Virus record (IMG/VR): IMGVR_UViG_3300029613_000341 | Span: 1-42,454 of that record | Source: a virus | Taxonomy: Duplodnaviria > Heunggongvirae > Uroviricota > Caudoviricetes | Reading direction: 5' to 3' (one strand) | Length of the DNA stretch: 42,454 nucleotides | Shown: positions 1 through 21,771 of the stretch, one piece after another | Numbering within the stretch: the stretch's first letter is position 1 | Layout of the letters: every line of letters starts with the position of its first letter | Position numbers and translations under genes: made by a program | Notes under the pieces: model-generated | What the model saw: only the letters and a program-made list of their open reading frames with translations | What the model was told of the DNA's origin: nothing | Database searches by the model: none

Positions 1-1719
1 ATGATTTTTAGGGATAGCTTGAGAGTATTACCTTATGGTCGAGTAGATAATGATTTCTTCCAGATAGAAGAAAGACGTTCATGGAATGCAGGGCGATATT
101 ATTGGTCTAATAGAAGGATTTTTGGTTATATTGGAATTACTCAATCCAGTAATAAAGAGCTGAAAGATAAGTCGGGGAGAGAGGGATTCATAAGAAACCA
201 GGCTGCAAGAGAACTGAAAACTATTATATCTAATTTGTTAACTGAACTTGCTGATAGATTTTTTGGTTCACGTTCTGATGACCGTAAAGAGCTTTTAGAA
301 CAAGTTAAGCGTGAAAAAGAGTTAAGAAAATCTGCTCAACAACAAGCTCGAAAATCAACACAAAAAAGTTTTTCAGAAGCTTTGAAGAATCAGACACCAG
401 TTCTTGATGCTTCCTTGGAGGCTGTTAAAAGGCTGAAAACTAAGCTTGATAAAACTGATGGTTCGTTAGATTTAAACTATCTTAAAATTATAGACAGTGA
501 TCTTACAAACTTAGATGCGTTGCGCAGTGAAATTAAAACGCCTATCAAACCTCCAAAACTTGGAATGTATGAAGAGAAATATAGAGACTACAGAGATAAA
601 TTTAATGAGTTCTCTGCGTATATTCTACAAATGAAGTTAGCAATTAATAAACTTGATTCTGAATTAAATAAACTTGAGCCTTCATTGTCAGCGAAAAATC
701 ACCTTGAAAAAAATCAAGGTATTATTAATTCTAAACTAACTAAGTTTAATAACACGATAGAGGAGAAGATACATTCTCTTTTAAAAAAATGGGCCGATGA
801 AATAAAGGTTGATCGAAGTGATTATTATGCTAAAACTATATCAGTTGTTGATTCAATAGATAATGATTCACAAATTGAAAATGTGTTTAATTTGCTCGAT
901 AGTTTATATGTTGAGTCAGTTGATACCCTAACTTTCAAATATCAATCAATAATAAAAGGTCTCGATAGATTATTTGAAGGTATAAACTTAGATTCAGCAT
1001 TCTCATTATCTGAAGAAGAACGCTCATATTTTGAAGAAAAAGCTAAAAGTTTAAACGCGCTTGCACAGTTAGGTATTAGTGTTGAGATAATATCTCATGA
1101 ACTTGAAGAAATGGATTCTATGGTAACCAGAGGACTAAACTCTCTTCCTACTTCTGTAAAAGAACACCCTGGTTTTTCATTGGCGTTAAATGCTCACAGA
1201 TCGCTTACTCAACAAATACGTTTCTTATCACCTTTGAAAATATCAGGTTATCAATCCAGGCAGAGAATAACTGGAAAAAATATCATGGATTATGTCCTGA
1301 AGTTCTTTGGGGAGCGTTTCGAACGGCAACGAATAACTATTGAATTTAGTGAAGAGTTTAAGCAAATCGCAATAACAGATATACCATCAAGGATCTATCC
1401 TGTTTTTACTAATATTATCAACAATGCAATGTATTGGGTCAGTCTGTCAAATAATAGGCTCATAAAGATTGGTTTTGTGAATTCTTTGGTTATCATAGCA
1501 AATTCTGGTCCGGCAATTGATACCGATGATATCCCGCGACTATTTGAACTATTTTATAGCAAAAGAGCAAATGGACATGGGGTAGGTCTGTATCTATGTC
1601 GAGAAAACCTTGCTGTTGCACATCATAAAATATGGTATTCAGAACCTGATGAAGGCGATAACTATTTAATAAAAGATGGCGCTAATTTTGTGATCCAGTT
1701 CAATGGAGTGGAGTTCTAA
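1..1719 (+). CDS. Histidine-kinase-like protein: coiled-coil-rich region, HisKA-like H-box, C-terminal GHKL (HATPase_c-like) ATPase; ORF is open to base 1, so the 5' end may lie outside the window
   Basis: Long ORF in frame 1. H-box-like I-S-H-E-L-E-E (His codon 1096-1098). C-terminal ~130 aa carry N-box-like NIINNAMYW, G1-like ANSGPAID and G2-like GHGVGLYL motifs. Visibly AT-rich compared with the phage backbone. Confidence 0.55.
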   Translation: MIFRDSLRVLPYGRVDNDFFQIEERRSWNAGRYYWSNRRIFGYIGITQSSNKELKDKSGREGFIRNQAARELKTIISNLLTELADRFFGSRSDDRKELLEQVKREKELRKSAQQQARKSTQKSFSEALKNQTPVLDASLEAVKRLKTKLDKTDGSLDLNYLKIIDSDLTNLDALRSEIKTPIKPPKLGMYEEKYRDYRDKFNEFSAYILQMKLAINKLDSELNKLEPSLSAKNHLEKNQGIINSKLTKFNNTIEEKIHSLLKKWADEIKVDRSDYYAKTISVVDSIDNDSQIENVFNLLDSLYVESVDTLTFKYQSIIKGLDRLFEGINLDSAFSLSEEERSYFEEKAKSLNALAQLGISVEIISHELEEMDSMVTRGLNSLPTSVKEHPGFSLALNAHRSLTQQIRFLSPLKISGYQSRQRITGKNIMDYVLKFFGERFERQRITIEFSEEFKQIAITDIPSRIYPVFTNIINNAMYWVSLSNNRLIKIGFVNSLVIIANSGPAIDTDDIPRLFELFYSKRANGHGVGLYLCRENLAVAHHKIWYSEPDEGDNYLIKDGANFVIQFNGVEF

Positions 1720-1720
1720 T

Positions 1721-3469
1721 ATGACAGTGGCAAATTATAATTCTCTTGTCCAGAAAACTTTCTGCGAAAATGCAATTCGTTCCGTTGTCATGATTGATGA
1801 CGATTTTCTGACGTATTCTGAATCAATCAGGGCGTTGAATAACGAAGTTGATTTAGACTACAACAAAATTGACTCATCTAAACGAGCCGCTACTCTTGAG
1901 AGCTTTTTTCAATCTAAAAATATGATTTGTGATGTTGACAATGGTTCTGTTAATTTCGATGTGGATCGGATTAGAAAATCAGATCTTATTATTGTAGATT
2001 ATCATCTTGATAATAATGCACCTGATAAAACACTTAAACTATTACAAGATTTGAAAGACTCCGATCATTTAAATATGATTGTAATATATACTAGAGAGAA
2101 TTTAGAAACGGTTTGGATGCAGATATCATCGACTCTCAAAGGTGCTCTGGATATCAACAGCTTGATCATTGACTACGATAATGAAGATGTCCAAAGTTAT
2201 TGGGAAGACGTTGTATTACCGAACTTAAATGATAATGGTAATAAAGCTCTCACAAGAGATGAAACAATAGCCTATATTAAAGACAGTAAGCCTTGTAGAA
2301 GAATTAAAAGATTAATACATGATGATGCTGTGTTGGAGGATCAAAAGGATAAAAACTTCATTGCAAAAATGATTGCAGAATATGCTGTGTCTAGAAATGC
2401 AATTATTTCTAGCAACACATCTGGCAATGTCATTCGGGGTGATGAAAGCGGAGTAAAATGGATTCAATGTGGTAATATCTTTGTCTCCCTATTTCATAAG
2501 GTTCAAGATGATCATGAAAACGATGGAGATAGGATTTGGCAAACTCTCAATGATTCTCTCATTGAATGGAAACCATCTTATTATCAGTTAATAAAATCTG
2601 AAATTCAGAATGCAATCGAAGCTGAGGCTTTATCTTTTGTAAATCATTTGGCTAACGATCATTACGGTCAAGCTGCGTGGTTAAATGAGATATTAAAATC
2701 AGACTCGCCTGATATTAGATGTAGAAATATTGACTTTGTATTTGGTAATTTATCAGAAGAGCTTTATCAAAGACTTAAAAATAATAATACGCTGGATGAA
2801 TTTATCAAAAGTGTTTTTGATAGCTATTCAAATGAATACGCTAACAGCGGAGTTGCTGCATTGCTCCAATATTGCTCTTCAAAAATGGATCTGCCATCAA
2901 ATAATGATACTTATCACGAAATGTATCATGCTTTAAATATGAATTTGTCTTCAAAGAATTTTGAAGATGGTCATATTTCTACTGGCACTATTTTCTTTGA
3001 TACAGAGTCGAACAAATGGTATTTATGTGTATCTGCGGCATGTGATTTGGTTCCTACTCAGGGTAACGACCCTCACCATGTAAGATTAAGTCCGCACAGG
3101 CTCATTAAAGTTCTGGAGCTTTTTAACGCCAGTCAGAGTAAAGCATTGCCATTTGCTGAACATTCGAAATATATATATGTAATGCATAAAAATCAAAGAA
3201 AATATCTCTCTATTTTCGAAGGGGATAAAACGCTTCCTGTTGTTGATTATATGGTGGTGTTGAATCATGGAACAACAGTTGATGGCGAAGAAAAAAATAT
3301 TATTTCTGCCGTGTTTTTAAGTAATATGGATGGCAACGTGCAAAATGTTCCTGTCCGACTCAAACTTAAATCTCAACTGAGAACTGGTTATGCAGAAAGA
3401 TATCAGGCTATAGCGTCTCAGTATAGCTCAAGGATTGGTGTGGATTATGTATCAATGATGCTACCATAA
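1721..3469 (+). CDS. Receiver (REC)-like domain protein with ~450-aa C-terminal domain of unknown function
   Basis: ATG at 1721 one base after the upstream stop (TAA 1717-1719), GGAG-type RBS just upstream. N-terminal ~130 aa have the receiver pattern: VVMIDDD acidic pair, DLIIVDYHL with candidate acceptor Asp (codon 1997-1999), MIVIYT. Remainder has no motif I recognise. AT-rich. Confidence 0.5.
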   Translation: MTVANYNSLVQKTFCENAIRSVVMIDDDFLTYSESIRALNNEVDLDYNKIDSSKRAATLESFFQSKNMICDVDNGSVNFDVDRIRKSDLIIVDYHLDNNAPDKTLKLLQDLKDSDHLNMIVIYTRENLETVWMQISSTLKGALDINSLIIDYDNEDVQSYWEDVVLPNLNDNGNKALTRDETIAYIKDSKPCRRIKRLIHDDAVLEDQKDKNFIAKMIAEYAVSRNAIISSNTSGNVIRGDESGVKWIQCGNIFVSLFHKVQDDHENDGDRIWQTLNDSLIEWKPSYYQLIKSEIQNAIEAEALSFVNHLANDHYGQAAWLNEILKSDSPDIRCRNIDFVFGNLSEELYQRLKNNNTLDEFIKSVFDSYSNEYANSGVAALLQYCSSKMDLPSNNDTYHEMYHALNMNLSSKNFEDGHISTGTIFFDTESNKWYLCVSAACDLVPTQGNDPHHVRLSPHRLIKVLELFNASQSKALPFAEHSKYIYVMHKNQRKYLSIFEGDKTLPVVDYMVVLNHGTTVDGEEKNIISAVFLSNMDGNVQNVPVRLKLKSQLRTGYAERYQAIASQYSSRIGVDYVSMMLP

Positions 3470-3995: not shown

Positions 3996-5225
3996 TTAGG
4001 CTACCAGAGCATTTGATCTTTGAGCTTGAACGTAATCACTCCACCATTGCATCAAACTCTGTCGCTCTATCAGATATTCTGCACGATTGTATGCTGCGAT
4101 AATTTCATCTTTTTTCGAGTGGGCAAGCGCTGCCTCAAGAACTTCAGCTCTGAATTTACCAGACTCCTCTGCCGCTGTTCGTGCAATAGAACGCATACCG
4201 TGAGCTACAAGCTCGCCTCCGAACCCCATTCGGATGATAGCTGCGTTGGCTGTTTGTTCATGCATATGATTAAGAGGCGCTTTTATGCTGGGGAAAACCC
4301 ATTCTCTATGCCCACTTATTGATTTCATTAATTCAAGGATGCGCAAAGCTTCTTTACTCAAAGGAACTTTGTGAAGCTTTTTCATTTTCATGAAATCAGC
4401 AGGAATGTTCCAAATGCTGTTGGTTGTATCAATATCAGACCACCTTGCGCGAACGGCTTCACCCGGACGAACCCATGTCAACAATTGCCATTCAATTAGC
4501 ATACGTGTTTCCAACCGGATTGACGCATTCGTCAAAGATTCCATAAACCTTGGCAATTCGCTTGGGGGAAGGGCAGGCATATTTTGCTTTTTTGGTTTAC
4601 TGAATCTTTGACCAAGGTTGTCAGCCGGGTTGAACTCAATAAGTTCTTCAGTAGCTGCCCACCGGAAGATTTCATTCAGACGTGAAATGATACGGCGTAG
4701 AGTTTCCAATACGCCTCGTTGCTCAATAGGATCAAGGTGTTGTTTTAAGAGCTTAGGTCGGATCTCATTGATAGGGACATTACCCAGACCGGGAAAGACA
4801 TTTCTCTCTAAGCTGCGCCAGATGTCTGCTGCATGGTCTTGTGAGATACCTGATGTCTTTACCTTCTCATCTAACCATTTCCGCGCTACGGCTTGGAGAG
4901 TGTGCTCAGTAGCACTCTTTAATGCCTTCGCCTTATCGTTGTTATGGATTTGGGGATCAACACCATTTGCCAGAAAGGAGAGATATTCATCACGTAAGGC
5001 TCTGGCTCTTGCAAGGGTAAGGTGAGGATATGTCCCAAGGCTCATTTTGGTTCTTTTCTTGCTCACTGGTACTGCATACCTGAAATACCAATTTTTCTTG
5101 CCTCCTTTCGCCAAAGGAGCGATTCGTAGAATCAGACCATCACCGTCAAACAAGTTGATTTCTTTATCGGCTGGCTTGGTGCTTTTGATTTCAGTGTCAG
5201 TGAGCTTCTTAGCGATTTTTGCCAT
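3996..5225 (-). CDS. int: Tyrosine recombinase/integrase, P4 (CP4-57 IntA-like) family
   Basis: ORF 3996-5267; most likely start is the Met of MAKIAKKLTDTEIK (5225). N-terminal arm-binding region typical of P4-family integrases, C-terminal catalytic motifs (AHGMRSIART, AAYNRAEY). Lies ~170 bp from the ssrA 3'-end fragment, the usual tmRNA-int arrangement. Confidence 0.85.
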   Translation of the reverse strand: MAKIAKKLTDTEIKSTKPADKEINLFDGDGLILRIAPLAKGGKKNWYFRYAVPVSKKRTKMSLGTYPHLTLARARALRDEYLSFLANGVDPQIHNNDKAKALKSATEHTLQAVARKWLDEKVKTSGISQDHAADIWRSLERNVFPGLGNVPINEIRPKLLKQHLDPIEQRGVLETLRRIISRLNEIFRWAATEELIEFNPADNLGQRFSKPKKQNMPALPPSELPRFMESLTNASIRLETRMLIEWQLLTWVRPGEAVRARWSDIDTTNSIWNIPADFMKMKKLHKVPLSKEALRILELMKSISGHREWVFPSIKAPLNHMHEQTANAAIIRMGFGGELVAHGMRSIARTAAEESGKFRAEVLEAALAHSKKDEIIAAYNRAEYLIERQSLMQWWSDYVQAQRSNALVA

Positions 5226-5319
5226 TTTGGGACCCTCGGTTTTTGGACCCTTCTTAGTGGGTCCCATTCAGGGTGCCATAACTCGTAGTTCTCAGCAATT
5301 CTCACTGGACGACAATAGA

Positions 5320-10200: not shown

Positions 10201-10427
10201 TGGCTGATGCAATGGATCTCGTACAGCAGCGCGTTGAAGAAGAACGCCAGCGCCATATCCGTGCTGCCCGTGCCAAAACACCGGGCGTGTCCCGCGTGCT
10301 TTGCATTGAGTGTGAAGCGCCAATTCCGCCAGCACGACGCCGCGCCATTCCGGGTGTGCAGCTTTGCATTACCTGCCAGGAAATCGCAGAGCTGAAAGGC
10401 AAACATTACAACGGAGGTGCTGTATGA
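10200..10427 (+). CDS. TraR/DksA-family C4 zinc-finger protein
   Basis: CIECEAPIPPARRRAIPGVQLCITCQ four-cysteine motif; stop overlaps the dam start as ATGA. Confidence 0.65.
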   Translation: MADAMDLVQQRVEEERQRHIRAARAKTPGVSRVLCIECEAPIPPARRRAIPGVQLCITCQEIAELKGKHYNGGAV

Positions 10428-11281
10428 GCACCATCCTGAAATGGGCGGGAAATAAAACCGCCATTATGTCCGAACTGAAAAAACACCTTCCTGATGGCCC
10501 GCGACTGGTTGAACCTTTCGCGGGTTCCTGTGCTGTGATGATGGAGACGGATTACCCCAGCTATCTGGTTGCGGATATTAATCCTGATTTAATCAACCTC
10601 TATAAAAAGGTTGCCGCTGATTGTGAATCGTTTATATCTCGCGCCAGAGTTTTATTTGAGATCGCAAACAGGGAGGTGGCTTATTACAACATAAGGCAGG
10701 GGTTTAATTACTCCACTGAAATTACTGATTTCATGAAAGCGGTATATTTCCTGTATCTCAATCGTCATGGTTACCGTGGATTATGTTGCTATAACAAGAG
10801 CGGGCATTTCAACATTCCGTACGGTAATTATAAAAATCCGTATTTCCCTGAAAAAGAAATTCGCGCATTTGCAGAGAAAGCCCAGCGTGCAACGTTTATC
10901 TGCGCAAGCTTTGATGAAACGCTGGCGATGCTGCAGGTGGGGGATGTGGTGTATTGCGATCCGCCGTATGACGGTACGTTTTCCGGCTATCACACTGATG
11001 GTTTCACTGAAGATGACCAGTATCACCTGGCATCCGTTCTTGAACATCGGTCATCAGAAGGACATCCGGTCATTGTTTCTAACAGTGACACATCCCTGAT
11101 CCGTTCGCTTTATCGCAATTTTACTCACCACTACATCAAGGCAAAACGCAGCATCGGCGTAGCAGCTGGTGAGAGTAAATCTGCAACAGAAATCATCGCT
11201 GTTTCCGGGCCGCGCTGCTGGGTGGGATTTGATCCTTCGCGTGGCGTGGATAGTTCTGCCGTGTACGGAGTGCGTGCATGA
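10424..11281 (+). CDS. dam: DNA adenine methyltransferase (Dam-like orphan N6-adenine MTase)
   Basis: N-terminal KWAGNK...FAGSCAV (SAM-binding) and catalytic DPPY motif ([10 protein letters not shown]). Confidence 0.85.
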
Positions 11282-13692
11282 GCCATGCTGATATGAACAA
11301 CTGCAGCGGCTTTAACGAGGCCGCCGCAGCATTCTCATGGAACAGCCCGAAAAAGGCTATTAACCCTTATCTGGACCCGGCGGAAGTTGCGCCGGTTTCT
11401 GCGCTGTCAAACCTGATCACTCTGTACGCTACCGATAACGAGCAGGAACAACTGCGCCGCGAGGCACTGAGTGATCAGGTCTGGGAGCGTTATTTCTTTA
11501 ATGAATCCCGTGATCCTGTCCAGCGCGAAATGGAGCAGGATAAGCTCATTAGCCGGGCAAAGTTGGCGCATGAGCAGCAGCGTTTTAACCCGGACATGGT
11601 CATTCTGGCAGACGTCAGCGCCCAGCCCTCCCATATCAGCAAGCCGCTGATGCAACGTATTGAATACTTCAGTAGCCTGGGCAGGCCAAAGGCTTATTCC
11701 CGCTATTTACGTGAGACGATTAAGCCATGTCTGGAACGACTGGAGCATGTACGCGACAGTCAGCTATCCACTTCTTTTCGCTTTATGGCAAGCCATGAAG
11801 GGCTGGACGGCCTGCTAATCCTGCCTGAAATGAGTCAGGATCAGGTCAAACGCCTGTCCACCCTTGTAGCTGCGCATATGAGCATGTGCCTTGATGCAGC
11901 TTGTGGCGATTTGTATGCCACCGATGATGTTAAGCCAGAAGAAATCCGCAAGACATGGGAAAAGGTGGCAGCAGAAACCCTGCGTCTGGATGTCATCCCG
12001 CCTGCGTTTGAGCAACTCCGTAGGAAAAGAAACCGCCGTAAACCAGTGCCCTATGAACTCATTCCGGGTTCGCTGGCGCGTATGCTGTGCGCCGACTGGT
12101 GGTATCGGAAATTGTGGAAGATGCGTTGCGAATGGCGGGAAGAGCAGTTGCGTGCTGTCTGCCTGGTCAGCAAAAAAGCATCTCCCTATGTCAGCTATGA
12201 AGCCGTGATGCATAAACGTGAGCAGCGCCGTAAGTCGCTGGAGTTTTTCCGTTCTCATGAACTGGTGAACGAAGACGGCGACACGCTGGATATGGAAGAT
12301 GTGGTAAACGCCAGTAGTAGCAACCCGGCGCATCGCCGCAATGAGATGATGGCATGTGTTAAAGGTCTGGAGCTTATCGCGGAAATGCGCGGTGACTGCG
12401 CCGTTTTCTACACCATCACCTGTCCGTCACGTTTCCATTCCACGCTAAATAACGGCAGGCCCAACCCGACCTGGACAAATGCGACGGTAAGACAAAGCAG
12501 TGATTATCTGGTCGGCATGTTTGCTGCATTTCGTAAGGCGATGCACAAAGCCGGATTGCGCTGGTATGGCGTGCGGGTGGCTGAGCCGCATCATGACGGT
12601 ACAGTTCACTGGCACCTGTTGTGTTTTATGCGCAAAAAAGATCGCCGCGCCATTACTGCTTTGTTGCGTAAGTTTGCCATTCGTGAAGACCGCGAGGAGC
12701 TGGGTAATAACACAGGACCACGCTTTAAGTCTGAGTTGATTAACCCGCGCAAAGGTACGCCAACAAGCTACATCGCGAAATACATCAGTAAGAACATTGA
12801 CGGGCGTGGTCTGGCTGGCGAGATCAGCAAGGAAACGGGTAAATCCCTGCGTGATAACGCTGAATACGTTAATGCCTGGGCGTCTCTGCATCGTGTTCAG
12901 CAATTCCGCTTCTTTGGCATTCCGGGGCGTCAGGCTTACCGTGAACTGCGATTGCTGGCTGGTCAGGCGGCAAGGCAACAGGGGAACAAAAAAGCAGGTG
13001 CGCCGGTACTGGATAACCCACGCCTTGATGCCATCCTGGCTGCTGCTGATGCTGGTTGCTTTGCCACCTACATAATGAAGCAGGGCGGCGTACTGGTTCC
13101 CCGTAAATATCACCTCATCAGAACCGCTTATGAAATCAACGAAGAGCCGACCGCCTATGGCGATCACGGTATTCGTATTTATGGCATCTGGTCACCCATT
13201 GCAGAGGGCAAGATCTGCACTCATGCAGTGAAGTGGAAAATGGTTCGTAAGGCCGTTGACGTTCAGGAGGCGGCAGCCGACCAGGGCGCTTGCGCCCCTT
13301 GGACTCGTGGCAATAACTGTCCCCTTGCTGAAAATTTGAACCAACAGGAGAAAGATAAATCAGCTGATGGGGACCCCAGAACGGACATTACCAGCATGGA
13401 TGACAAGGAGTTGCACGATTACCTGCACAGTATGAACAAAAAAGAGCGCCGGGAACTGGCTGCAAGATTACGCCTGGTGAAACCGAAACGGCGTAAAGAC
13501 TACAAACAGCGAATTACAGACCATCAGAGACTGCAGCTCGTCTATGAGCTGAAGTCCAGAGGATTTGATGGTAGCGAGAAAGAGGTCGATTTACTCCTTC
13601 GCGGCGGCAGTATTCCGTCAGGAGCAGGCTTGCGTATTTTCTATCGGAACCAGCGTTTGCGGGAAGATGATAAGTGGCGGAACCTGTATTAA
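11278..13692 (+). CDS. A: Replication initiation protein A (rolling-circle HUH endonuclease, P2 gpA family)
   Basis: 804 aa; HUH motif VHWHLL and tyrosine pair YIAKYISKN; position after the early genes matches P2/186. Confidence 0.9.
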
Positions 13693-14043: not shown

Positions 14044-14277
14044 ATGCGCATTGAAATAATGATCGATAAAGAGCAGAAGATTAGCCAGTCTACCCTGGAC
14101 GCTCTGGAGTCCGAGCTTTACCGCAACCTGCGCCCCCTGTATCCCAAAACGGTAATTCGTATCCGTAAAGGTAGCTCTAACGGTGTGGAACTGACCGGAC
14201 TGAAACTGGACGAAGAAAAAAAACAAGTGATGAAAATTATGCAGAAGGTGTGGGAAGACGACAGCTGGCTGCATTAA
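14044..14277 (+). CDS. DinI-like protein (DinI/Tum C-terminal domain family)
   Basis: 77 aa, MRIEIMIDKEQKISQSTLDALESELYRNL...KIMQKVWEDDSW resembles DinI as recalled; downstream of the LexA box. Confidence 0.7.
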   Translation: MRIEIMIDKEQKISQSTLDALESELYRNLRPLYPKTVIRIRKGSSNGVELTGLKLDEEKKQVMKIMQKVWEDDSWLH

Positions 14278-14591
14278 GAAACGTTGCCCCCAGGAGGATT
14301 CATTCTGATGGGGGCTAGTTTGGGCAACGAGTGAAATAAGGTGTAAGGTCATTTTGATAAATGATCGTCTGCTTTGTGCAAGATGCAAACGTTTCTTCTG
14401 CTAACTTTCGTTAATTAACGAATGGCAGACTAATTCGCAACGGATAATCTGAATTTTGTAAGATTATGGGCATTTCTATAAAATTTACTAATAATAACCT
14501 TACAATGTACACTACCGATTGAATTTTCCATAGTTGGCCTTTGGCTCTACTTACCATCTATGTTTATGTATTTTATCAAAATGGACTAAAA

Positions 14592-16484
14592 ATGAACAAT
14601 ACGTACATCAAAGACTATATAGAATATTACCTTAGCCTTACAACTGAACCTCAATACGCCATTATGCTTAAAGGTGCTTGGGGATCAGGTAAAACTTGGT
14701 TCATTGAACAAGTTCTTGAAGAATATAAGCAGAAGAATTCAGAGTTTAAATTTCTAAAAGTGAGTTTGTATGGCGTCAACTCTATTAAACAGATTGAAGA
14801 TGAGTTCTATCGTCAACTTCATCCTGTCCTATCAAACAAAGCCCTTATCTTTGGTGCAAATGTACTAAAAAATACGCTTAAGGCTACTTTCAAGATCGAT
14901 CTCAATGGCGATAATAAATCTGACGTTGATGTCAATACCAATGTTCCCACCATTAATCTTAACGATTTTAGTAGAAAACCAGATGGTTTTGTGCTGGTCT
15001 TTGATGATATCGAGAGAGCTGGTATAGATTTACCAATTTTATTTGGATATATAAACCACTTTGTAGAAGTAAACGGATACAAAGCGATCTTGGTTGCCAA
15101 TGAAGAAGAAATAATCAATAGAGAAAAGCGAATAAATAATGATGATGAGAAATCTAGCAGCGAATACATGAGAACAAAAGAAAAGCTTGTTGGTAAAACA
15201 TTTGAAGTAACGTCAGATTTACATAGTGCTTGTAATGTTTTTTTGGGCGTAATTAGCAGTTTACACGTTGCTAATATATTTAAAGAAGATATGCAGGCCA
15301 TAGAAGACATCTATGTGTCGGCGAAATATAATAATCTAAGACACTTGAGGCAGTTCTTTCTTGATGTACAACGCATCATTTCCCTTTTGGGAAATAAATA
15401 TGTCAGCAACGACGATTTTATGAGGGTATTTTTCCAGCAGTTGTTAATTTTCTCGATAGAGTACCGGGGAGGGAACCTTAACTACGAGGAATTCGATTCA
15501 ATCAGCAATGTTAATTATGGTATGTTTTTAGGTAAAGAGCGTACCAAAACTAAGTATGACATGATCGTCGAGAAATATTCATCTCCTGTATTAACCGAGA
15601 AGTTACTGGATGGTGCGTACTGGAGGGAGCTAATCTGTGATGGAAAGGTAACGAGTGAACTTCTCGCTCAGTTGGATATTACGCGATTTTTTAGAAGCAC
15701 CGATGCCCAAGCATGGGAGTATTTGTGGAACTATCGAGAACTTAATGAAACTATGCTTAATGAGCAGTACGCCATTGCCAAGGATAATCTATTTTCAGGT
15801 AAGATCACTTCCTTAGGTGAACTCCTGATGACCGCGAGTATTTTGCTGGACATGGCGAAAGAAGGTCTAACAACAGATGATGTTCATGATCTCATAAATG
15901 AGACAAAACAGAATATAAATAATTATTATAATAGACTTAGAGCTGAAGATATACATAAGGAATATGCGCAAACGCATTATAACGAATTAAGGGCATGGCG
16001 TGGCTTTGGTTTTCTTGACAGGGATAGCGATGAATTCAAACTCATTATTGAGCATATTGAGATAGCGAAGAAGAAACGGTTTGATGAATCAATTCCGGAA
16101 TTTGCGTTGCAGTTCAGCGATGAGTTGCAAAGGGGAAACTTATCGTTTGTATCTGAATTGAGTCATTCTAATAATAGGCAGTTAAATCTTCATAATGTGC
16201 CTTTTTTACACTTGGTTCCTCCTGAAGTTTTCATTGAAAGCTATAGGAAACTTGACCCAGTCCTCATGAGGAAACTGGCATTTAGCTTGCGGAATCGTTA
16301 TTCTGATGGGGATGCTAGAACCAGACTGACCGAAGAATACAACTGGTTGATTAACCTAAAAGAGATAGCTGTAGATTTCACTCAAAACGCAGCCAATAAC
16401 TCCTTTCAGGTTTTTCACGTAAAGTTTTTTATTGACTATGTATTAACTAGCGCAATCAAATTCTTTACTGAGGGAACTGATTAA
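14592..16484 (+). CDS. P-loop NTPase (Walker A GAWGSGKT, Walker B VLVFDD; possibly KAP-type), ~630 aa
   Basis: ATG at 14592 (ORF open from an alternative TTG at 14541); Walker A and B motifs present; long C-terminal region without motifs I recognise; strongly AT-rich; followed by a terminator. Confidence 0.7.
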   Translation: MNNTYIKDYIEYYLSLTTEPQYAIMLKGAWGSGKTWFIEQVLEEYKQKNSEFKFLKVSLYGVNSIKQIEDEFYRQLHPVLSNKALIFGANVLKNTLKATFKIDLNGDNKSDVDVNTNVPTINLNDFSRKPDGFVLVFDDIERAGIDLPILFGYINHFVEVNGYKAILVANEEEIINREKRINNDDEKSSSEYMRTKEKLVGKTFEVTSDLHSACNVFLGVISSLHVANIFKEDMQAIEDIYVSAKYNNLRHLRQFFLDVQRIISLLGNKYVSNDDFMRVFFQQLLIFSIEYRGGNLNYEEFDSISNVNYGMFLGKERTKTKYDMIVEKYSSPVLTEKLLDGAYWRELICDGKVTSELLAQLDITRFFRSTDAQAWEYLWNYRELNETMLNEQYAIAKDNLFSGKITSLGELLMTASILLDMAKEGLTTDDVHDLINETKQNINNYYNRLRAEDIHKEYAQTHYNELRAWRGFGFLDRDSDEFKLIIEHIEIAKKKRFDESIPEFALQFSDELQRGNLSFVSELSHSNNRQLNLHNVPFLHLVPPEVFIESYRKLDPVLMRKLAFSLRNRYSDGDARTRLTEEYNWLINLKEIAVDFTQNAANNSFQVFHVKFFIDYVLTSAIKFFTEGTD

Positions 16485-16549
16485 CTTTTTGTTGATTAAC
16501 ATAGGCAATATTATTAGAAGTACTAGGGATAGTCAGTAAAATTATTAAC

Positions 16550-16581
16550 GTCCGCTTCGCTCAAAGCGGACTTTGTGCTTT
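16550..16581 (+). terminator. Rho-independent terminator
   Basis: GTCCGCTT-CGCTCA-AAGCGGAC stem-loop followed by TTTGTGCTTT, ~65 bp after the NTPase stop. Confidence 0.55.
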
Positions 16582-16769
16582 ATAAAAACGAGAGTTTTGT
16601 TTTTCAAGCGGTCATTCGGTTACGGGATTTCACTTCCCCCGTAAGTGCATGACTATGCCGCATGAGATCGCATGATCGTTTGCGGATCGTTTTTGCTAAG
16701 GCACGCCAGAACTGGTGGGATTTTGCGTAGATCATGCGCCTGCATGAAAACCGCTACATAAAGCGGGCA

Positions 16770-16788
16770 GGCGTGGCGGGGATACGAG
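16770..16788. other. Candidate cos site (cohesive-end region)
   Basis: GGCGTGGCGGGGATACGAG followed by GCGCGCTG; the first 13 bases match my recollection of the 186/P2 cohesive end (GGCG[T/A]GGCGGGGA). Coordinate and identity are tentative. Confidence 0.3.
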
Positions 16789-16896
16789 CGCGCGCTGTAT
16801 GCCTGAAGTGGCTAAAATAGTATCTGTCATAGGTACAACTTAGTGTAGTATCATCCATATAATCCATTGAAATATAATCGACTCTCATTAGAGGTG

Positions 16897-17895
16897 ATGA
16901 TGAACGGAATCTGGTACGAAAACACTCATACACGCATTCCTAATTTTGAAACAACAGTACATCAAAAGCACAAATTCGGTTACGCTTATGAAACAACAAG
17001 TCATTTTGTGCATCTGTATGGGCGTGACGTGGGATTTAATGTAATATCAGTTGGGTTAACTGTTATTGAGCAACGAAGTGGAACTCTCAATGATTGGGTT
17101 CGGAGAGTATTTGGGGCTCAGAACATATCTCCTTTAGATAATGAAATTGGACATGTAACTAGGGGAGTGTGGCGGCCATCCTTATATTATGTCAATGATA
17201 CAGAAACAGCATTAGGTATCGATGAGTTTGAAAAAAGAGCAACAGAGCAAGCTCTAAGAGTTTTGATAGAAAAACTCGATGATATTTTTCTATATGTAGA
17301 ACCAAGTGCCCATGGTTTGATTTCTTACAGTCATAAATGTAGAGAGCTATTAATTCTTGCTTGTACTGAGGTTGAAAATCAATGGGTGTCAATCATTGGT
17401 AATTCGAATTTATCTCGTTCAAATGGTCGATACTCCACAAATGATTATGTGAAATTATTAGATAAGTGTTATTTGTCTGAATATAAAATTCAATATTTGA
17501 ATTATGACGGATTAAGGCATTTCAAACCTTTTGATGGGTGGAATGCAAGTACCCCTACAACATCTTTGTCATGGTATAATGCATATAATAAAACTAAACA
17601 TGATAGATCAGGAGCATTCCACTTTTCCACTTTAGAAAATGTGATGGATGCAGTTGCTGCTTGTGTTGTAATGTACTGTGTAAAATATGGCCCGTTTAGC
17701 TTATTGGAAGCCAATACGTCTCTATCAACGATCGTTAATCAAAACTTTTCAATTTCATTAGATAATAGCAATCCAGCAAGTTATTACATTCCTGAAATTG
17801 AACTTCCACCGGATACAAGAACGGATTTATTAATTTATGATTGTTATCGAGAAAACCATAATAAAGCATGGGTCACTGATCCCCTAGTGCTCTAA
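16897..17895 (+). CDS. Hypothetical protein (~332 aa), unknown function
   Basis: ORF 16867-17895 (alternative TTG); ATG at 16897/16900 with GAGGTG RBS; AT-rich; no motif I recognise. Confidence 0.5.
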   Translation: MMNGIWYENTHTRIPNFETTVHQKHKFGYAYETTSHFVHLYGRDVGFNVISVGLTVIEQRSGTLNDWVRRVFGAQNISPLDNEIGHVTRGVWRPSLYYVNDTETALGIDEFEKRATEQALRVLIEKLDDIFLYVEPSAHGLISYSHKCRELLILACTEVENQWVSIIGNSNLSRSNGRYSTNDYVKLLDKCYLSEYKIQYLNYDGLRHFKPFDGWNASTPTTSLSWYNAYNKTKHDRSGAFHFSTLENVMDAVAACVVMYCVKYGPFSLLEANTSLSTIVNQNFSISLDNSNPASYYIPEIELPPDTRTDLLIYDCYRENHNKAWVTDPLVL

Positions 17896-17951
17896 TTTCC
17901 TGCTAAAGGGAGCTTTTAATTATAAACGCTCCCTTCGGTTGTCGCTATTTA

Positions 17952-18578
17952 TTATATATCAATAGAGTTTTGAAATTTTAATAACTGCCATCTTGTTAAT
18001 AGTGGTTTTATTGCTATGTTGTGTTGGGTATTTATTTTTAAACCTTCGAATTTCGAATATCCATTTTCCAAGGCTTCCACTGAAAAATGAATGGTTTTTG
18101 TTATCGGGTTTATAGCACAAAGATTTAGGTCATATAAAGTATGAATGTCACTTCTGAGCAATAATCCATTGCTAATATGATTGTGACTATCGTTTCGATA
18201 TACATTAATGTGAGCAGCATCAAGAATATCAACAAGCTTACAGCCCGTAACCGCACAAGTAGGATTTGATTTTAATAGCTGGTCGCGAAATGTTTTTTGC
18301 CCACTTCGTTGTTTTATTTGCCGTTCTACAATTTGCCGTTGATCTTCACCCATTAAAGTGGGGGTGTCTTTATCAGCTTCGCTGGCGTTGAGCTCCAGAA
18401 TAATAGTATGTTGGGCGGTAAGCAAAGCAACAGCCCATTGATAGTTAACTTCTTGGATGGACATTTGCCCATTGTAGCGTGGAGTTTCATCTATAAATTG
18501 TGACATTGTAATATTGGATAATTTACGGTACTGGTTGCCGCAGTATGCTATAAATTCTTTAGCTGGCTCAAAAACCAC
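17952..18578 (-). CDS. HNH endonuclease domain protein (C-terminal part of an apparently split gene)
   Basis: HNH motif CAVTGC...LDAAHI...NGLLLRSDIHTLYDLNL; annotated start is GTG; the frame stays open upstream to a stop at 18669-18671, overlapping the end of the upstream ORF. Confidence 0.7.
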   Translation of the reverse strand: MVFEPAKEFIAYCGNQYRKLSNITMSQFIDETPRYNGQMSIQEVNYQWAVALLTAQHTIILELNASEADKDTPTLMGEDQRQIVERQIKQRSGQKTFRDQLLKSNPTCAVTGCKLVDILDAAHINVYRNDSHNHISNGLLLRSDIHTLYDLNLCAINPITKTIHFSVEALENGYSKFEGLKINTQHNIAIKPLLTRWQLLKFQNSIDI

Positions 18579-18625
18579 TCTGGGTTCATCAAATTCATGG
18601 CCATTATCACAACGCCACTCTGATT

Positions 18626-18919
18626 TTATAGTTTTCCTTTGAAGAATTTTTTTGCTTTGCAGTCTAGGTTAATACATTTGTTACGCTTCTTATTAATGCT
18701 CTGTGTTTCTAATTTTTCAATAACAGATATACCTAAAATATTTTCTCTGTTGGTAATAATATCACCGTCTTTTACATTTTTGTGGTTCGCTACAAAACTG
18801 TCATAGCGATAGAAAACTGATGAGTCATCGGGATAACTATCATTTCCCCAGTATCTAAGATCGTCTTTCTCAATTGCCTTAAAAAAAACCATACTTGCTG
18901 TACCATGAACTTTTCCCAC
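18626..18919 (-). CDS. Small ORF immediately upstream of the HNH ORF (likely the N-terminal part of the same gene, separated by a frameshift)
   Basis: 97-aa ORF ending ...CKAKKFFKGKL; an A7 run (T7 on plus strand, 18647-18653) lies where the two frames overlap. Confidence 0.4.
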   Translation of the reverse strand: MGKVHGTASMVFFKAIEKDDLRYWGNDSYPDDSSVFYRYDSFVANHKNVKDGDIITNRENILGISVIEKLETQSINKKRNKCINLDCKAKKFFKGKL

Positions 18920-18976
18920 TAATCAAATTTTGGTTTGTTCTATCGAACAGCAAAGCATGTTGATATACAAGAGAAA

Positions 18977-20008
18977 TCATCCCAAAGAATATGGCTCAAA
19001 TCGCAAAATTTTTTGTTCTAACCAGTCATTTACTTCACGCATCCTTTTTTGCAACGGTAATAATTCATTTCGCACAAACACATTTGCCGCCTTCTCCACA
19101 TCCCCAAACCCCCCAACATTGCTAGGCATTATCCCCATCATTTGTGGTGGCACACGATGCGCTGCCATCATGTCATCCCGACTCACGTTCTTGATGTTAA
19201 GAAATTCATCCTTCGCTGCGACTTCTGATAGCGGGATAATCTGAAGCCCGTCTTTTTTGCCGTTAGGCGAGTACATAAACAGGTTGCGGAAGTTACCCGG
19301 ACCTTTGGCACTTTTCATCGCGTTGCGGAGGTTGTTTACATCCTCCTGGTTCTGCGCGGCGTCGGTCATGTACATGATGAAGCCTGCATGACTGCCGTTG
19401 ATGTAATACTTACGGCGGAACAGCGTGGCGGACTCATTGAGCAGGGCGGACGGAATGGCAGAAAGATAGCCGGGCAGGCCGTAGATCTCTTGGTTAATGT
19501 CCGGTTCCATCAGATGAAAAATGCTGCCTTTCGTGAACTGATACGGCTGGGTTGTCATACCGTATTGCACAAACCAGTAGGTATTCAGGTCTAACCCGCG
19601 TCGGGTGTATTTTGCCAGAGCAGGCTCAAGGGCGATAACTTCACCGAAGCGGTTCGTGCGTTTCTCCAGGTAGGCGTTACCAAATACCAGATAGTCCTGC
19701 ACAAAACGTGAAAAAGCCTGCTGGCTGAGCAGCGGGTGAGGGATGTAGGTACTGGTCAGAATGTTGCATTTCACCGCAATTGGTGAACTGTGATGCACGG
19801 CGGCGCGGAAGGTGCGCGCCAGTCCGTCAAAACTCACTGGCGGCTCATACCAGCGATCTGTCTGTACGCATTCCACATAGTCCAGTAGTTCACGGCGGTC
19901 CAGAACCGGAACGGGATCGCCGAAGCTGAATGCTTCGGCTGAAGTCTGGTTTTTATGCTGGGTCTGTTTCGTCGCCGCAGCGCGGTTCTTCTTACTCTTT
20001 CCCATCAA
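18977..20008 (-). CDS. Q: Portal protein (P2 gpQ family)
   Basis: 343 aa; position and recalled similarity to P2 Q; stop abuts the terminase start. Confidence 0.9.
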   Translation of the reverse strand: MMGKSKKNRAAATKQTQHKNQTSAEAFSFGDPVPVLDRRELLDYVECVQTDRWYEPPVSFDGLARTFRAAVHHSSPIAVKCNILTSTYIPHPLLSQQAFSRFVQDYLVFGNAYLEKRTNRFGEVIALEPALAKYTRRGLDLNTYWFVQYGMTTQPYQFTKGSIFHLMEPDINQEIYGLPGYLSAIPSALLNESATLFRRKYYINGSHAGFIMYMTDAAQNQEDVNNLRNAMKSAKGPGNFRNLFMYSPNGKKDGLQIIPLSEVAAKDEFLNIKNVSRDDMMAAHRVPPQMMGIMPSNVGGFGDVEKAANVFVRNELLPLQKRMREVNDWLEQKILRFEPYSLG

Positions 20009-21771
20009 AAAATCTCCACAATATTGCTGGTATTGGCGGACTCGCCCTGCAGCGGTTCGTTAAACAGTGCGTGCATTGTTGCCCAGGCCAGATCGGCATG
20101 GCTGGCTTCTTCGCTGCGGCTGGCTTCATAGGTCGGGCGGTTGCCGCTGGCGGTGGTGGCGCGACGGATTGCCATGAATGACTGCGCAATGTCGGTGTGC
20201 CCGGCGTCAAACTCAAGACGGCGGTGGCTGATAATGTCGTAGGCCTTGAGTACCAGGGCGTTTTTAACGTTGGGGTTGTAGACAAACTCCCGGACGGCAG
20301 GAAAAAACGCTTTCACGTTCTCGTAAACCCCGTGACCAACGCCGGTTGAGTCGATGCCGATATAGGTCACGTTGTACTGTTCGGTCAGTTTTTTGATGGC
20401 GTCAGCCTGGGCGCGAAAGTCCATTCCGCGCCACTGGTGACGCTCAAGAATGCGGAACTTACCGCCTGGCACGGCTGGCGGTGCCACCACCACGCATCCG
20501 GCGCTGTCGCCGTTCTGCGTACCTTTTGCCGGGTCATAACCGATCCACACTTCGCGCCAGCCAAACGGGCGCAGGGCCAGTGCATGAAAGTCGGTCCAGA
20601 CTTCCCAGCTGTCCACCATGCACGCCTGCAATTCGCTGAGCGGGAACACGGACGCGAGATCGTCCACGAACTCGCACATCAGCAGGTTCTGGTATTCGTC
20701 AGGGCTGTACTCCATGCGCAACTGGTCAAGGTCGAACAGGTTACAGCCGCCGCGCACCGCATCTTCCACGGTGACTATCTGGCGGTATTGCCCGTCTGCG
20801 CACAGCAGGCCGGGGGCCAGATTGCTGTGGGACAGGTCGATGTCCACCTTGTCAGCTTTGTTGCGCCCACGGTTGAACAGCGCACCGGACCAGAACGGAT
20901 AAGCACTGTGGGTCAGACTGGATGGTGTGGAAAAATAGGTCTGCCGCCATTTCTTGTGAATAGCCATACCGGAAGCCACTTTGCGTAGCTCCTGAAATTT
21001 CGGTATCCAGAAATATTCATCCAGATACAGGTTGCCGTGATAACTCTGGGCCGTGCGGGCATTGGTGCCGAGGAAGTAAAGCGTGGCCCCGTTAGGAAGC
21101 ACCATCGGATCGCCTTTCAGCTCCACCTCCACTTCTTTGGCGAAGTCGATGATGTACTGCTTAAAGACGTGGGCCTGTGCCTTACTGGCGGAAAGGAAAA
21201 TCTGGTTACGCCCGGTAAGCAGGGCGTCAATCAGGGCTTCACGGGCAAAGTAAAAGGTCGCGCCGATCTGGCGTGACTTCAGCAGGTTGCGGATGCGGTT
21301 GGTTTTTCCGGCTTCCCACCAGTGGCGCTGGTAGTTGAACATGGAGGAATGGAAGATTTCTTCCAGCTTCTCAATCTGTTCATCGGTGAAGACATTTTTT
21401 TCCGGCTGACGGCGCGGGCCTTTGTTGCGGTTGGCGACGTTAGGATTTAAGTCGGCTTCGTTGCCGCCATTGTTAAACTTGCCGATCCGCGCGTGGCGCT
21501 CAGACTGGCGCGCCAGCAGGTCAATCTCTTTGAAATCTTTCCCTTCTTTGTGCTCCTTCATAATGAGCTGGCAGTAGCGTGCGGCGGTGGTGAGCTGCAT
21601 CTGATCCAGCGGCCCATAGTCACCCCACTTGTCGCGTTTTTTCCAGCTGTGAACGGTTGCAACTTTCTCGCCCAGCATTTCAGCAATGCGGGCTACGCGG
21701 TATCCCTGAAAGTACAGCAGCATGGCCTGCCGACGGGGATCGAGATCTGCGGGTGTCAGTGTGGTGTTCAT
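20005..21771 (-). CDS. P: Terminase large (ATPase) subunit (P2 gpP family)
   Basis: 588 aa; divergent from the O-N capsid operon as in P2. Confidence 0.9.
   Translation of the reverse strand: MNTTLTPADLDPRRQAMLLYFQGYRVARIAEMLGEKVATVHSWKKRDKWGDYGPLDQMQLTTAARYCQLIMKEHKEGKDFKEIDLLARQSERHARIGKFNNGGNEADLNPNVANRNKGPRRQPEKNVFTDEQIEKLEEIFHSSMFNYQRHWWEAGKTNRIRNLLKSRQIGATFYFAREALIDALLTGRNQIFLSASKAQAHVFKQYIIDFAKEVEVELKGDPMVLPNGATLYFLGTNARTAQSYHGNLYLDEYFWIPKFQELRKVASGMAIHKKWRQTYFSTPSSLTHSAYPFWSGALFNRGRNKADKVDIDLSHSNLAPGLLCADGQYRQIVTVEDAVRGGCNLFDLDQLRMEYSPDEYQNLLMCEFVDDLASVFPLSELQACMVDSWEVWTDFHALALRPFGWREVWIGYDPAKGTQNGDSAGCVVVAPPAVPGGKFRILERHQWRGMDFRAQADAIKKLTEQYNVTYIGIDSTGVGHGVYENVKAFFPAVREFVYNPNVKNALVLKAYDIISHRRLEFDAGHTDIAQSFMAIRRATTASGNRPTYEASRSEEASHADLAWATMHALFNEPLQGESANTSNIVEIF

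Follow-up and report, generated by a model that had tools for sequence, protein, structure and literature searches.

Two open reading frames below the portal gene

The stretch of DNA analyzed here, referred to as the window, is the 42,454-nucleotide (nt) IMG/VR virus record IMGVR_UViG_3300029613_000341, which is a P2-like (Peduoviridae) prophage. Next to its portal gene and on the same strand lie two open reading frames (ORFs), one of 97 amino acids (aa; ORF1) and one of 208 aa that encodes an HNH nuclease domain. A preliminary description, made from the sequence alone, had proposed that the two are pieces of a single gene broken at a run of seven adenines (A7). The features of the locus are listed below in window coordinates; L004 and L005 are two of the nearest intact homologues, and SEN8 is a Salmonella phage.

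17952-18906, minus strand: the whole putative pseudogene, from the ancestral ATG to the stop; remains of a gene of about 319 aa (colinear DNA alignment with L004, L005 and SEN8 gp02, and protein alignment)
18626-18919, minus strand: ORF1, 97 aa, GTG start; only the first half of a predicted PUA-like sensor domain, as far as the first two cysteines of a zinc ribbon
17952-18578, minus strand: HNH ORF, 208 aa, GTG start; second half of the predicted PUA-like domain, a linker helix and an HNH_2 nuclease domain
18904-18906, minus strand: putative ancestral start ATG (MVQQ...), which now opens a 38-codon dead-end frame stopping at the TAG at 18790-18792
18881-18888, minus strand: T8 run, frameshift 1; two nt more than the TCCTTT of intact orthologues (DNA alignment)
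18755-18763, minus strand: in-frame 6-bp loss in an (ATT)n repeat; GDIITNR in the window, GDIVIITNR in intact proteins
18647-18653, minus strand: A7 run (T7 on the plus strand) within the overlap of the ORF1 and HNH frames, frameshift 2; one nt fewer than the A8 of intact orthologues
18597-18676, minus strand: zinc-ribbon motif CxxxxC ... CxxxH, interrupted by frameshift 2 at A7
18129-18218, minus strand: HNH catalytic core AAHINVYRNDSHNHISNGLLLRSDIHTLYD, aligning with the HNH domain of VcaM4I (6yex)

The HNH frame runs open upstream as far as the TAA at 18669-18671. On re-reading, the positions in the preliminary description (both ORFs, this TAA, and the A7 run in the overlap) all proved correct, as did the observation that GTG is the only start available to the HNH ORF. 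That description had further supposed that a single A, whether inserted or deleted at the run, would fuse the two ORFs, and this holds for the insertion only. Adding one A in silico (A8) gives a fused product of 322 aa, and removing 2 nt gives the same fusion, but removing one (A6) leads into the third frame and leaves the ORFs unjoined. Strain ET665 is a natural case of A6; its ORF1 is lengthened to 105 aa and no fusion results.

The repaired 322-aa protein was searched against a collection of 5.8 billion protein clusters, and 282 matches were retrieved at E ≤ 1e-3, the lowest E value being 2.5e-186. Among the best 120 of these 282 matches, nearly all are uninterrupted proteins of 312-346 aa that span 93-96% of the query. 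The homologues belong to Salmonella, Citrobacter, Klebsiella, Enterobacter, Serratia and other hosts, with identities of up to 91%, and cyanobacteria, Bacteroidota and other phyla also have full-length relatives, which are 35-40% identical. Intact copies include gp02 of the isolated phage SEN8. Because the 322-aa fusion matches more than 280 uninterrupted proteins of 313-325 aa, it is not a chance reading, and the earlier view of the two ORFs as parts of one protein of about 320 aa is upheld by these colinear single-ORF homologues. Had homologues always come as two genes, that view would have failed; intact single ORFs are present in other genomes, and no two-gene homologues were found elsewhere, either in the protein search or at the DNA loci of the nearest relatives. 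Only one match exceeds 91% identity, and this is P0035 (54 member sequences), the 208-aa fragment on its own; nothing fused and more than 91% identical to the window allele was found among the 5.8 billion clusters.

The nearest intact copies were then aligned as DNA, namely L004 (a Logan contig), L005 (Salmonella), L006, L007, L008 (Enterobacter wuhouensis), L009 (Serratia) and SEN8 gp02. All seven read GCA AAA AAA ATC (A-K-K-I) at the position of the break, that is, an in-frame A8, and in the further relatives L010 and L015 the run is broken by AAG. Since every one of the seven intact close relatives carries the in-frame A8, the window's A7 is a derived loss of one nt. As a separate observation, L007 (DAMAVY010000604.1) is a 1.6-kb contig binned into a "Clostridium sp." metagenome-assembled genome; it carries enterobacterial P2 cargo, comprising an HNH gene 84% identical to that of the window and fragments of the portal gene and of a gene for a HEPN-like protein, and the contig is most likely a binning contaminant.

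The same alignments point to a second break near the 5' end. Intact homologues' proteins begin MVQQAWSFKAIEKDD in the protein alignment, and the window sequence at the corresponding ATG is ATGGTACAGCAAGTATGG, followed directly by the T8 run. The GTG at 18919, from which ORF1 is called, is thus not the real start of the gene, the matching start being the ATG at 18904-18906. Immediately downstream, the window reads TGG TTTTTTTT AAG where intact genes read TGG TCC TTT AAG, and the TCCTTT at this site was read in L004, L005 and SEN8. By comparison with its relatives, then, the gene has two frameshifts, T8 and A7, rather than one. The preliminary description was right to place a break at the A7 homopolymer and overlooked the T8 frameshift, the 6-bp loss and the substitutions described below. 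The (ATT)n repeat itself was created when GTT became ATT, so that I replaced the V of the intact genes, and its copy number is two in the window, three in the E. coli genome FORC_081 and four in the remaining E. coli genomes that carry the locus.

Predicted domains of the repaired protein

Searches of the repaired protein against Pfam, NCBIfam and PADLOC returned HNH domain or generic "HNH" models only, with nothing for the N-terminal domain. In Pfam the one match is HNH_2, at 35 bits against a cut-off of 21, and PHROGs places the protein in the unannotated family phrog_21425. When the family profile was run against the PDB with hmmsearch, a single solved structure was retrieved, VcaM4I (6yex), over the HNH region (E 1.5e-9). 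The invariant HNH residues H237, N251 and H260 are all kept in the window.

For the N-terminal part we turned to structure prediction. An AlphaFold model of an intact orthologue (P0001), built with a 63-sequence alignment, has a mean predicted local distance difference test (pLDDT) score of 74; most of its N-terminal domain scores 81-94, dropping to 54-66 over residues ~11-30. The model shows a beta-barrel over residues 1-165, with a zinc ribbon inserted between two long strands, and on this model the fold of the N-terminal domain is predicted to be EVE/YTH/ASCH-like (PUA superfamily), that is, of the kind found in reader domains. A Foldseek search with the model matched VcaM4I at E 6e-6. The zinc-ribbon residues C82, C87, C104 and H108 are invariant in a 19-sequence alignment; in the 63-sequence alignment the cysteines are invariant and the histidine is conserved in at least 90% of sequences. 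A match to Zn_ribbon_RlmA (E 0.065) fell under the cut-off and was not used.

In the window, the two halves of the ribbon stand in different frames, with CINLDC encoded by the ORF1 frame and WRCDNGH by the HNH frame. The A7 break thus falls inside both the sensor barrel and its zinc ribbon, and neither window ORF encodes a whole domain because of it. Both domains share one uninterrupted frame in the orthologues, but not in the window, where T8, A7 and the 6-bp deletion intervene.

Fusions of PUA-superfamily domains to HNH nucleases are established modification-dependent nucleases (PMC6765204, PMC7897488). The likeness to type IV restriction nucleases that the preliminary description had remarked upon therefore stands at the level of fold and architecture, per the HNH_2 and VcaM4I matches; as to what the enzyme cut, analogy is the guide. 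With VcaM4I and other EVE-HNH enzymes taken as the model, the most likely action of the intact protein was to flip a modified base into the barrel pocket and cut nearby DNA, and a lysogen carrying it would restrict phages with modified genomes; the lost prophage gene was probably a restriction enzyme cutting modified DNA. The closest known group is the EVE-HNH type IV group of VcaM4I and TspA15I (PDB 6yex), whose HNH domain is similar in sequence to that of the window family. The sensor of the window family, in contrast, shows no similarity to EVE that can be detected by sequence (no Pfam match, 10-12% identity) and carries the inserted Cys2-Cys-His zinc ribbon, and in the window the gene itself is broken. 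More remote are TagI, ScoMcrA and E. coli McrA (from the e14 prophage), in that their readers differ (SRA-like, sulfur-binding and McrA N-domain, respectively) and the sequence relationship is confined to the HNH domain.

Copies in E. coli, selection and alternative readings

The locus was found in 12 of 5,426 complete E. coli genomes, all at ~99% identity. No other or intact alleles were found in these 5,426 genomes, and a more sensitive blastn search for distant copies retrieved the same 12 split copies. The counts that follow refer to the window together with these 12 genomes, 13 copies in all, which differ from one another by no more than about 1%. The T8 run is present in 13/13; at the A tract, 12 copies have A7, one has A6 and none has A8; and a CAA-to-TAA change places a stop in the HNH part of ten. 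This shows that both frameshifts are older than the divergence of these prophages and that lesions are still accruing.

These counts bear directly on whether the gene is really intact and merely misread by sequencing or assembly. Both breaks do lie at homopolymers, which long-read and older platforms miscount, so the possibility had to be considered. However, the 12 genomes were assembled independently, by different laboratories and from different hosts and countries, and they share an identical T8 and, in most cases, A7 (A6 in ET665). There are also lesions outside homopolymer miscounts, such as the C-to-T changes that made the T8 run, the 6-bp deletion, the nonsense codon and 13 amino-acid substitutions. 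We consider the probability of such an error to be almost negligible.

With the frame repaired in silico and changes polarized with L004, L005 and L006, the window lineage has accumulated two synonymous and 13 non-synonymous changes, as against 30:27 when the three intact lineages are taken together (Fisher p = 0.008). Of the 13 replacements, eight (A5V, S7F, G23S, P97S, Y124C, L139F, R203S and A237V) fall at positions at least 92% conserved in the 63-sequence family alignment, compared with 0/27 in the intact lineages (p = 1.7e-5). The pairwise ratio of non-synonymous to synonymous divergence (dN/dS) to the closest intact copy is 0.55, versus 0.18-0.26 among intact copies, and an adjacent intact gene, taken as a control, gives 0.24 across the same divergence. 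Such a pattern marks a gene released from constraint, under relaxed purifying selection.

A break at a homopolymer also brings to mind a phase-variable, or contingency, nuclease, in which slipped-strand mispairing would switch the tract from A7 (off) to A8 (on) and back and a subpopulation would express the full-length enzyme. Homopolymer-controlled phase-variable restriction-modification genes are known, for instance in Haemophilus, Neisseria and Helicobacter, and the window gene is like them in being a nuclease-type gene interrupted at a mononucleotide run. The tract length does vary between strains (mostly A7, with A6 in ET665), and the intact relatives have an unbroken A8 there although their synonymous divergence has reached saturation. 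Unlike those genes, however, the window gene has no "on" variants (no A8 among the 13 copies, and no fused protein above 91% identity in the protein collection), carries a second fixed frameshift, is decayed further, and has a short tract that is stable in its intact relatives. An A8 alone would not restore the native gene while the fixed T8 frameshift remained, ten copies carry the downstream stop, and the substitutions show relaxed selection. A/T tracts of 7-8 are shorter than those at established contingency loci. A8 is in frame in all seven intact loci that have the tract, which thus acts as stable coding sequence; in a gene of 35% G+C content (GC) there is nothing unusual about the codons GCA AAA AAA ATC, and AAG breaks the run elsewhere. 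A phase-variable nuclease is, on this evidence, very unlikely.

We also considered whether the conservation of A8 reflects selection for the tract, and rejected the idea, given that the gene is AT-rich, that by our own estimate an A8 has roughly a one-in-four chance per lineage, and that L010 and L015 have AAG. A more speculative proposal, which we regard as unlikely, has two separate parts. One is that the A8 tract acts as a low-rate "fuse" in P2-like phages, which could shed a potentially self-harmful modification-dependent nuclease on lysogenizing hosts whose DNA bears the target modification; on that view the E. coli lineage would preserve a fossil off-switch, later locked by more mutations. 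The other is that phrog_21425, with SEN8 gp02, represents a new phage-borne type IV enzyme with a zinc-ribbon PUA-like reader.

A full-length nuclease might instead be made from the A7 allele at a set ratio, by programmed -1 ribosomal frameshifting or transcriptional slippage on A_AAA_AAA. The ORF1 frame does contain a perfect X_XXY_YYZ heptamer (GC A_AAA_AAA), the HNH frame is the -1 frame relative to it, and the T8 site, which reads U_UUU_UUA, likewise requires a shift of -1. The configuration is not conserved, though, as the homologues are in one frame with A8 or an interrupted run. Folding of the 87 nt that follow the run is no more stable than that of shuffled sequences (z = +0.51), and no Shine-Dalgarno-like element was found before the run. 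The downstream frame is not under selection either, with the stop in 10/13 copies and an A6 in one that destroys the heptamer register. Such recoding seems to us extremely unlikely.

Finally, the two ORFs could by now be separate functional genes, for example a stand-alone sensor fragment and an independently translated HNH nuclease. Both are open in the window, the Prokaryotic Genome Annotation Pipeline (PGAP) annotates both in related genomes, and ORF1 is open in all 13 copies. Against this, the cut lies in the middle of a beta-barrel and of a zinc ribbon rather than at a domain boundary; the HNH ORF, with its GTG start, has no evident ribosome-binding site and is truncated by the stop in ten copies; and a two-gene arrangement was found nowhere else. 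The open ORFs are no evidence of selection, because the copies differ by no more than about 1%. We therefore give this explanation only a very small chance.

Measured against colinear intact homologues, the region carries disabling lesions, as a pseudogene does. We accordingly read it, with a probability of roughly 0.87, as the pseudogene of one PUA-like/HNH nuclease gene carried as cargo by a P2-like prophage, an ordinary pseudogene and not a switch. The ancestor would have been a single gene of about 319 aa located between cos and the portal gene gpQ of P2-like phages, its product comprising an N-terminal PUA-superfamily (EVE/YTH/ASCH-like) beta-barrel, into which a Cys2-Cys-His zinc ribbon is inserted, followed by an HNH_2 nuclease at the C-terminus. 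The gene was probably inactivated in this E. coli lineage through replication slippage within homopolymers, once from TCCTTT to T8 (+2 nt) after codon 6 and once from A8 to A7 (-1 nt) at about codon 88. Later drift would have brought the 6-bp repeat contraction and many substitutions of conserved residues, with sister copies adding the nonsense codon or the loss from A7 to A6. Of the three options that the preliminary description had left side by side, the pseudogene is thus retained, and the other two, sequencing error and a phase-variable switch, give way to the lesions shared among the 12 genomes and to the lack of any A8 in the 13 copies.

We would like to note several points that weigh against a pseudogene. 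The window copy has no nonsense codon, and its HNH catalytic motif is unaltered. An in-frame ATG at 18890-18892 could stand in for the lost start, and A_AAA_AAA is formally a perfect -1 slippery heptamer; going by the reading frames, a trace of full-length, heavily mutated protein could arise by way of this ATG and slippage at A7, and it would still bear the eight substitutions at near-invariant positions. The domain assignment has its own weak places, in that the AlphaFold model has only moderate confidence as a whole (pLDDT 74) and low confidence in part of the HNH domain, and the N-terminal domain has no Pfam match. Even so, the two annotated ORFs are by-products of decay, from which a working nuclease product is not expected.

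The cargo between cos and the portal gene

The prophage genes of the window include an integrase, a CI-type repressor, a Dam-like methyltransferase, gpA (11278-13692), and the portal and terminase genes (18977-21771). The pseudogene lies in a low-GC island from ~14200 to 19000, where GC is 32-40%, versus 52-60% in the flanking phage genes. The neighboring features are as follows.

18977-20008, minus strand: portal gene, P2 gpQ-like, directly upstream of the pseudogene (Pfam Phage_portal on the orthologous neighbor)
16897-17895, plus strand: intact 332-aa protein with a HEPN-like domain, convergent neighbor of the HNH pseudogene
16770-16788, plus strand: phage cos site, identical at 19/19 positions to the cos annotated in Salmonella phage SEN8, bordering the cos-to-portal cargo slot
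14541-16484, plus strand: 647-aa KAP-family P-loop NTPase, on the gpA side of cos (PADLOC candidate PDC-S49, E 1e-159)

With cos at 16770-16788, the ends of the phage genome fall inside the low-GC island and divide the cargo into two slots. The interval from cos to gpQ holds the 332-aa gene and the HNH pseudogene, just as it holds gp01 and gp02 in SEN8, and the HEPN-like gene travels with the HNH gene in the closest clade. A two-gene system with this neighbor was considered and rejected, as more distant intact HNH homologues adjoin the portal gene without it; for the same reason the nuclease appears to be autonomous. Relative to the L004 phage, the synonymous divergence (dS) of the cargo genes (16897-18919) is 0.05-0.07, and that of the adjacent portal gene (18977-20008) is about 1.0; therefore the HEPN-like/HNH module seems to have moved recently between divergent P2-like backbones. 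On the other side of cos, C21-type sister prophages have the KAP NTPase replaced by a CdiI-like immunity gene and a gene with an RNase A-like domain (L002, 402-1539).

The Dam-like methyltransferase is a D12-class N6-adenine enzyme encoded at 10364-11281 (plus strand), directly upstream of gpA and overlapping it, and it would matter as context if the lost nuclease was a sensor of DNA modification. A scan for promoter and terminator consensus sequences gave fewer promoter-like sites than shuffles, with none upstream of the gene. At the start of the window (1-3469, plus strand, and 3996-5267, minus strand), outside the P2-like prophage, two overlapping genes adjoin a tyrosine integrase; one, cut off by the window edge, encodes a 572-aa HATPase_c-domain protein and the other a 588-aa Response_reg_2 (PF19192) protein. 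PADLOC gave no match for either, and the pair may be a separate integrated island with a two-gene module.

P2-like phages have a defense hotspot between gpA and gpQ (PMC9122126), and the pseudogene has the hallmarks of its cargo, lying in the variable gpA-gpQ region beside cos and deviating in composition. Known cargo of this hotspot includes old, tin and many defense systems (PMC9122126, PMC13586616), and the window gene occupies the same variable, low-GC, cos-proximal place by the portal gene, with the PADLOC candidate KAP NTPase PDC-S49 as a neighbor. It differs in that it sits on the portal side of cos, is pseudogenized, and is not a named defense system (generic PADLOC "HNH" matches only). 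Rousset et al. 2022 make no mention of an HNH gene at this locus.

In itself the finding is of little weight, being that of a candidate defense gene decaying in place within the cos-proximal hotspot of P2. Recognizable defense pseudogenes are rare in P2, at about 2% of pseudogenes (PMC13586616), and the locus is a small counter-example to the rarity reported in that survey. For annotation, 12 RefSeq E. coli genomes have separate entries for an "HNH endonuclease" and a "hypothetical protein" that should be merged into one pseudogene. The locus also draws attention to a widespread family in which a predicted PUA-like barrel with an inserted zinc ribbon is fused to an HNH_2 nuclease, and of which phage SEN8 carries an intact copy.
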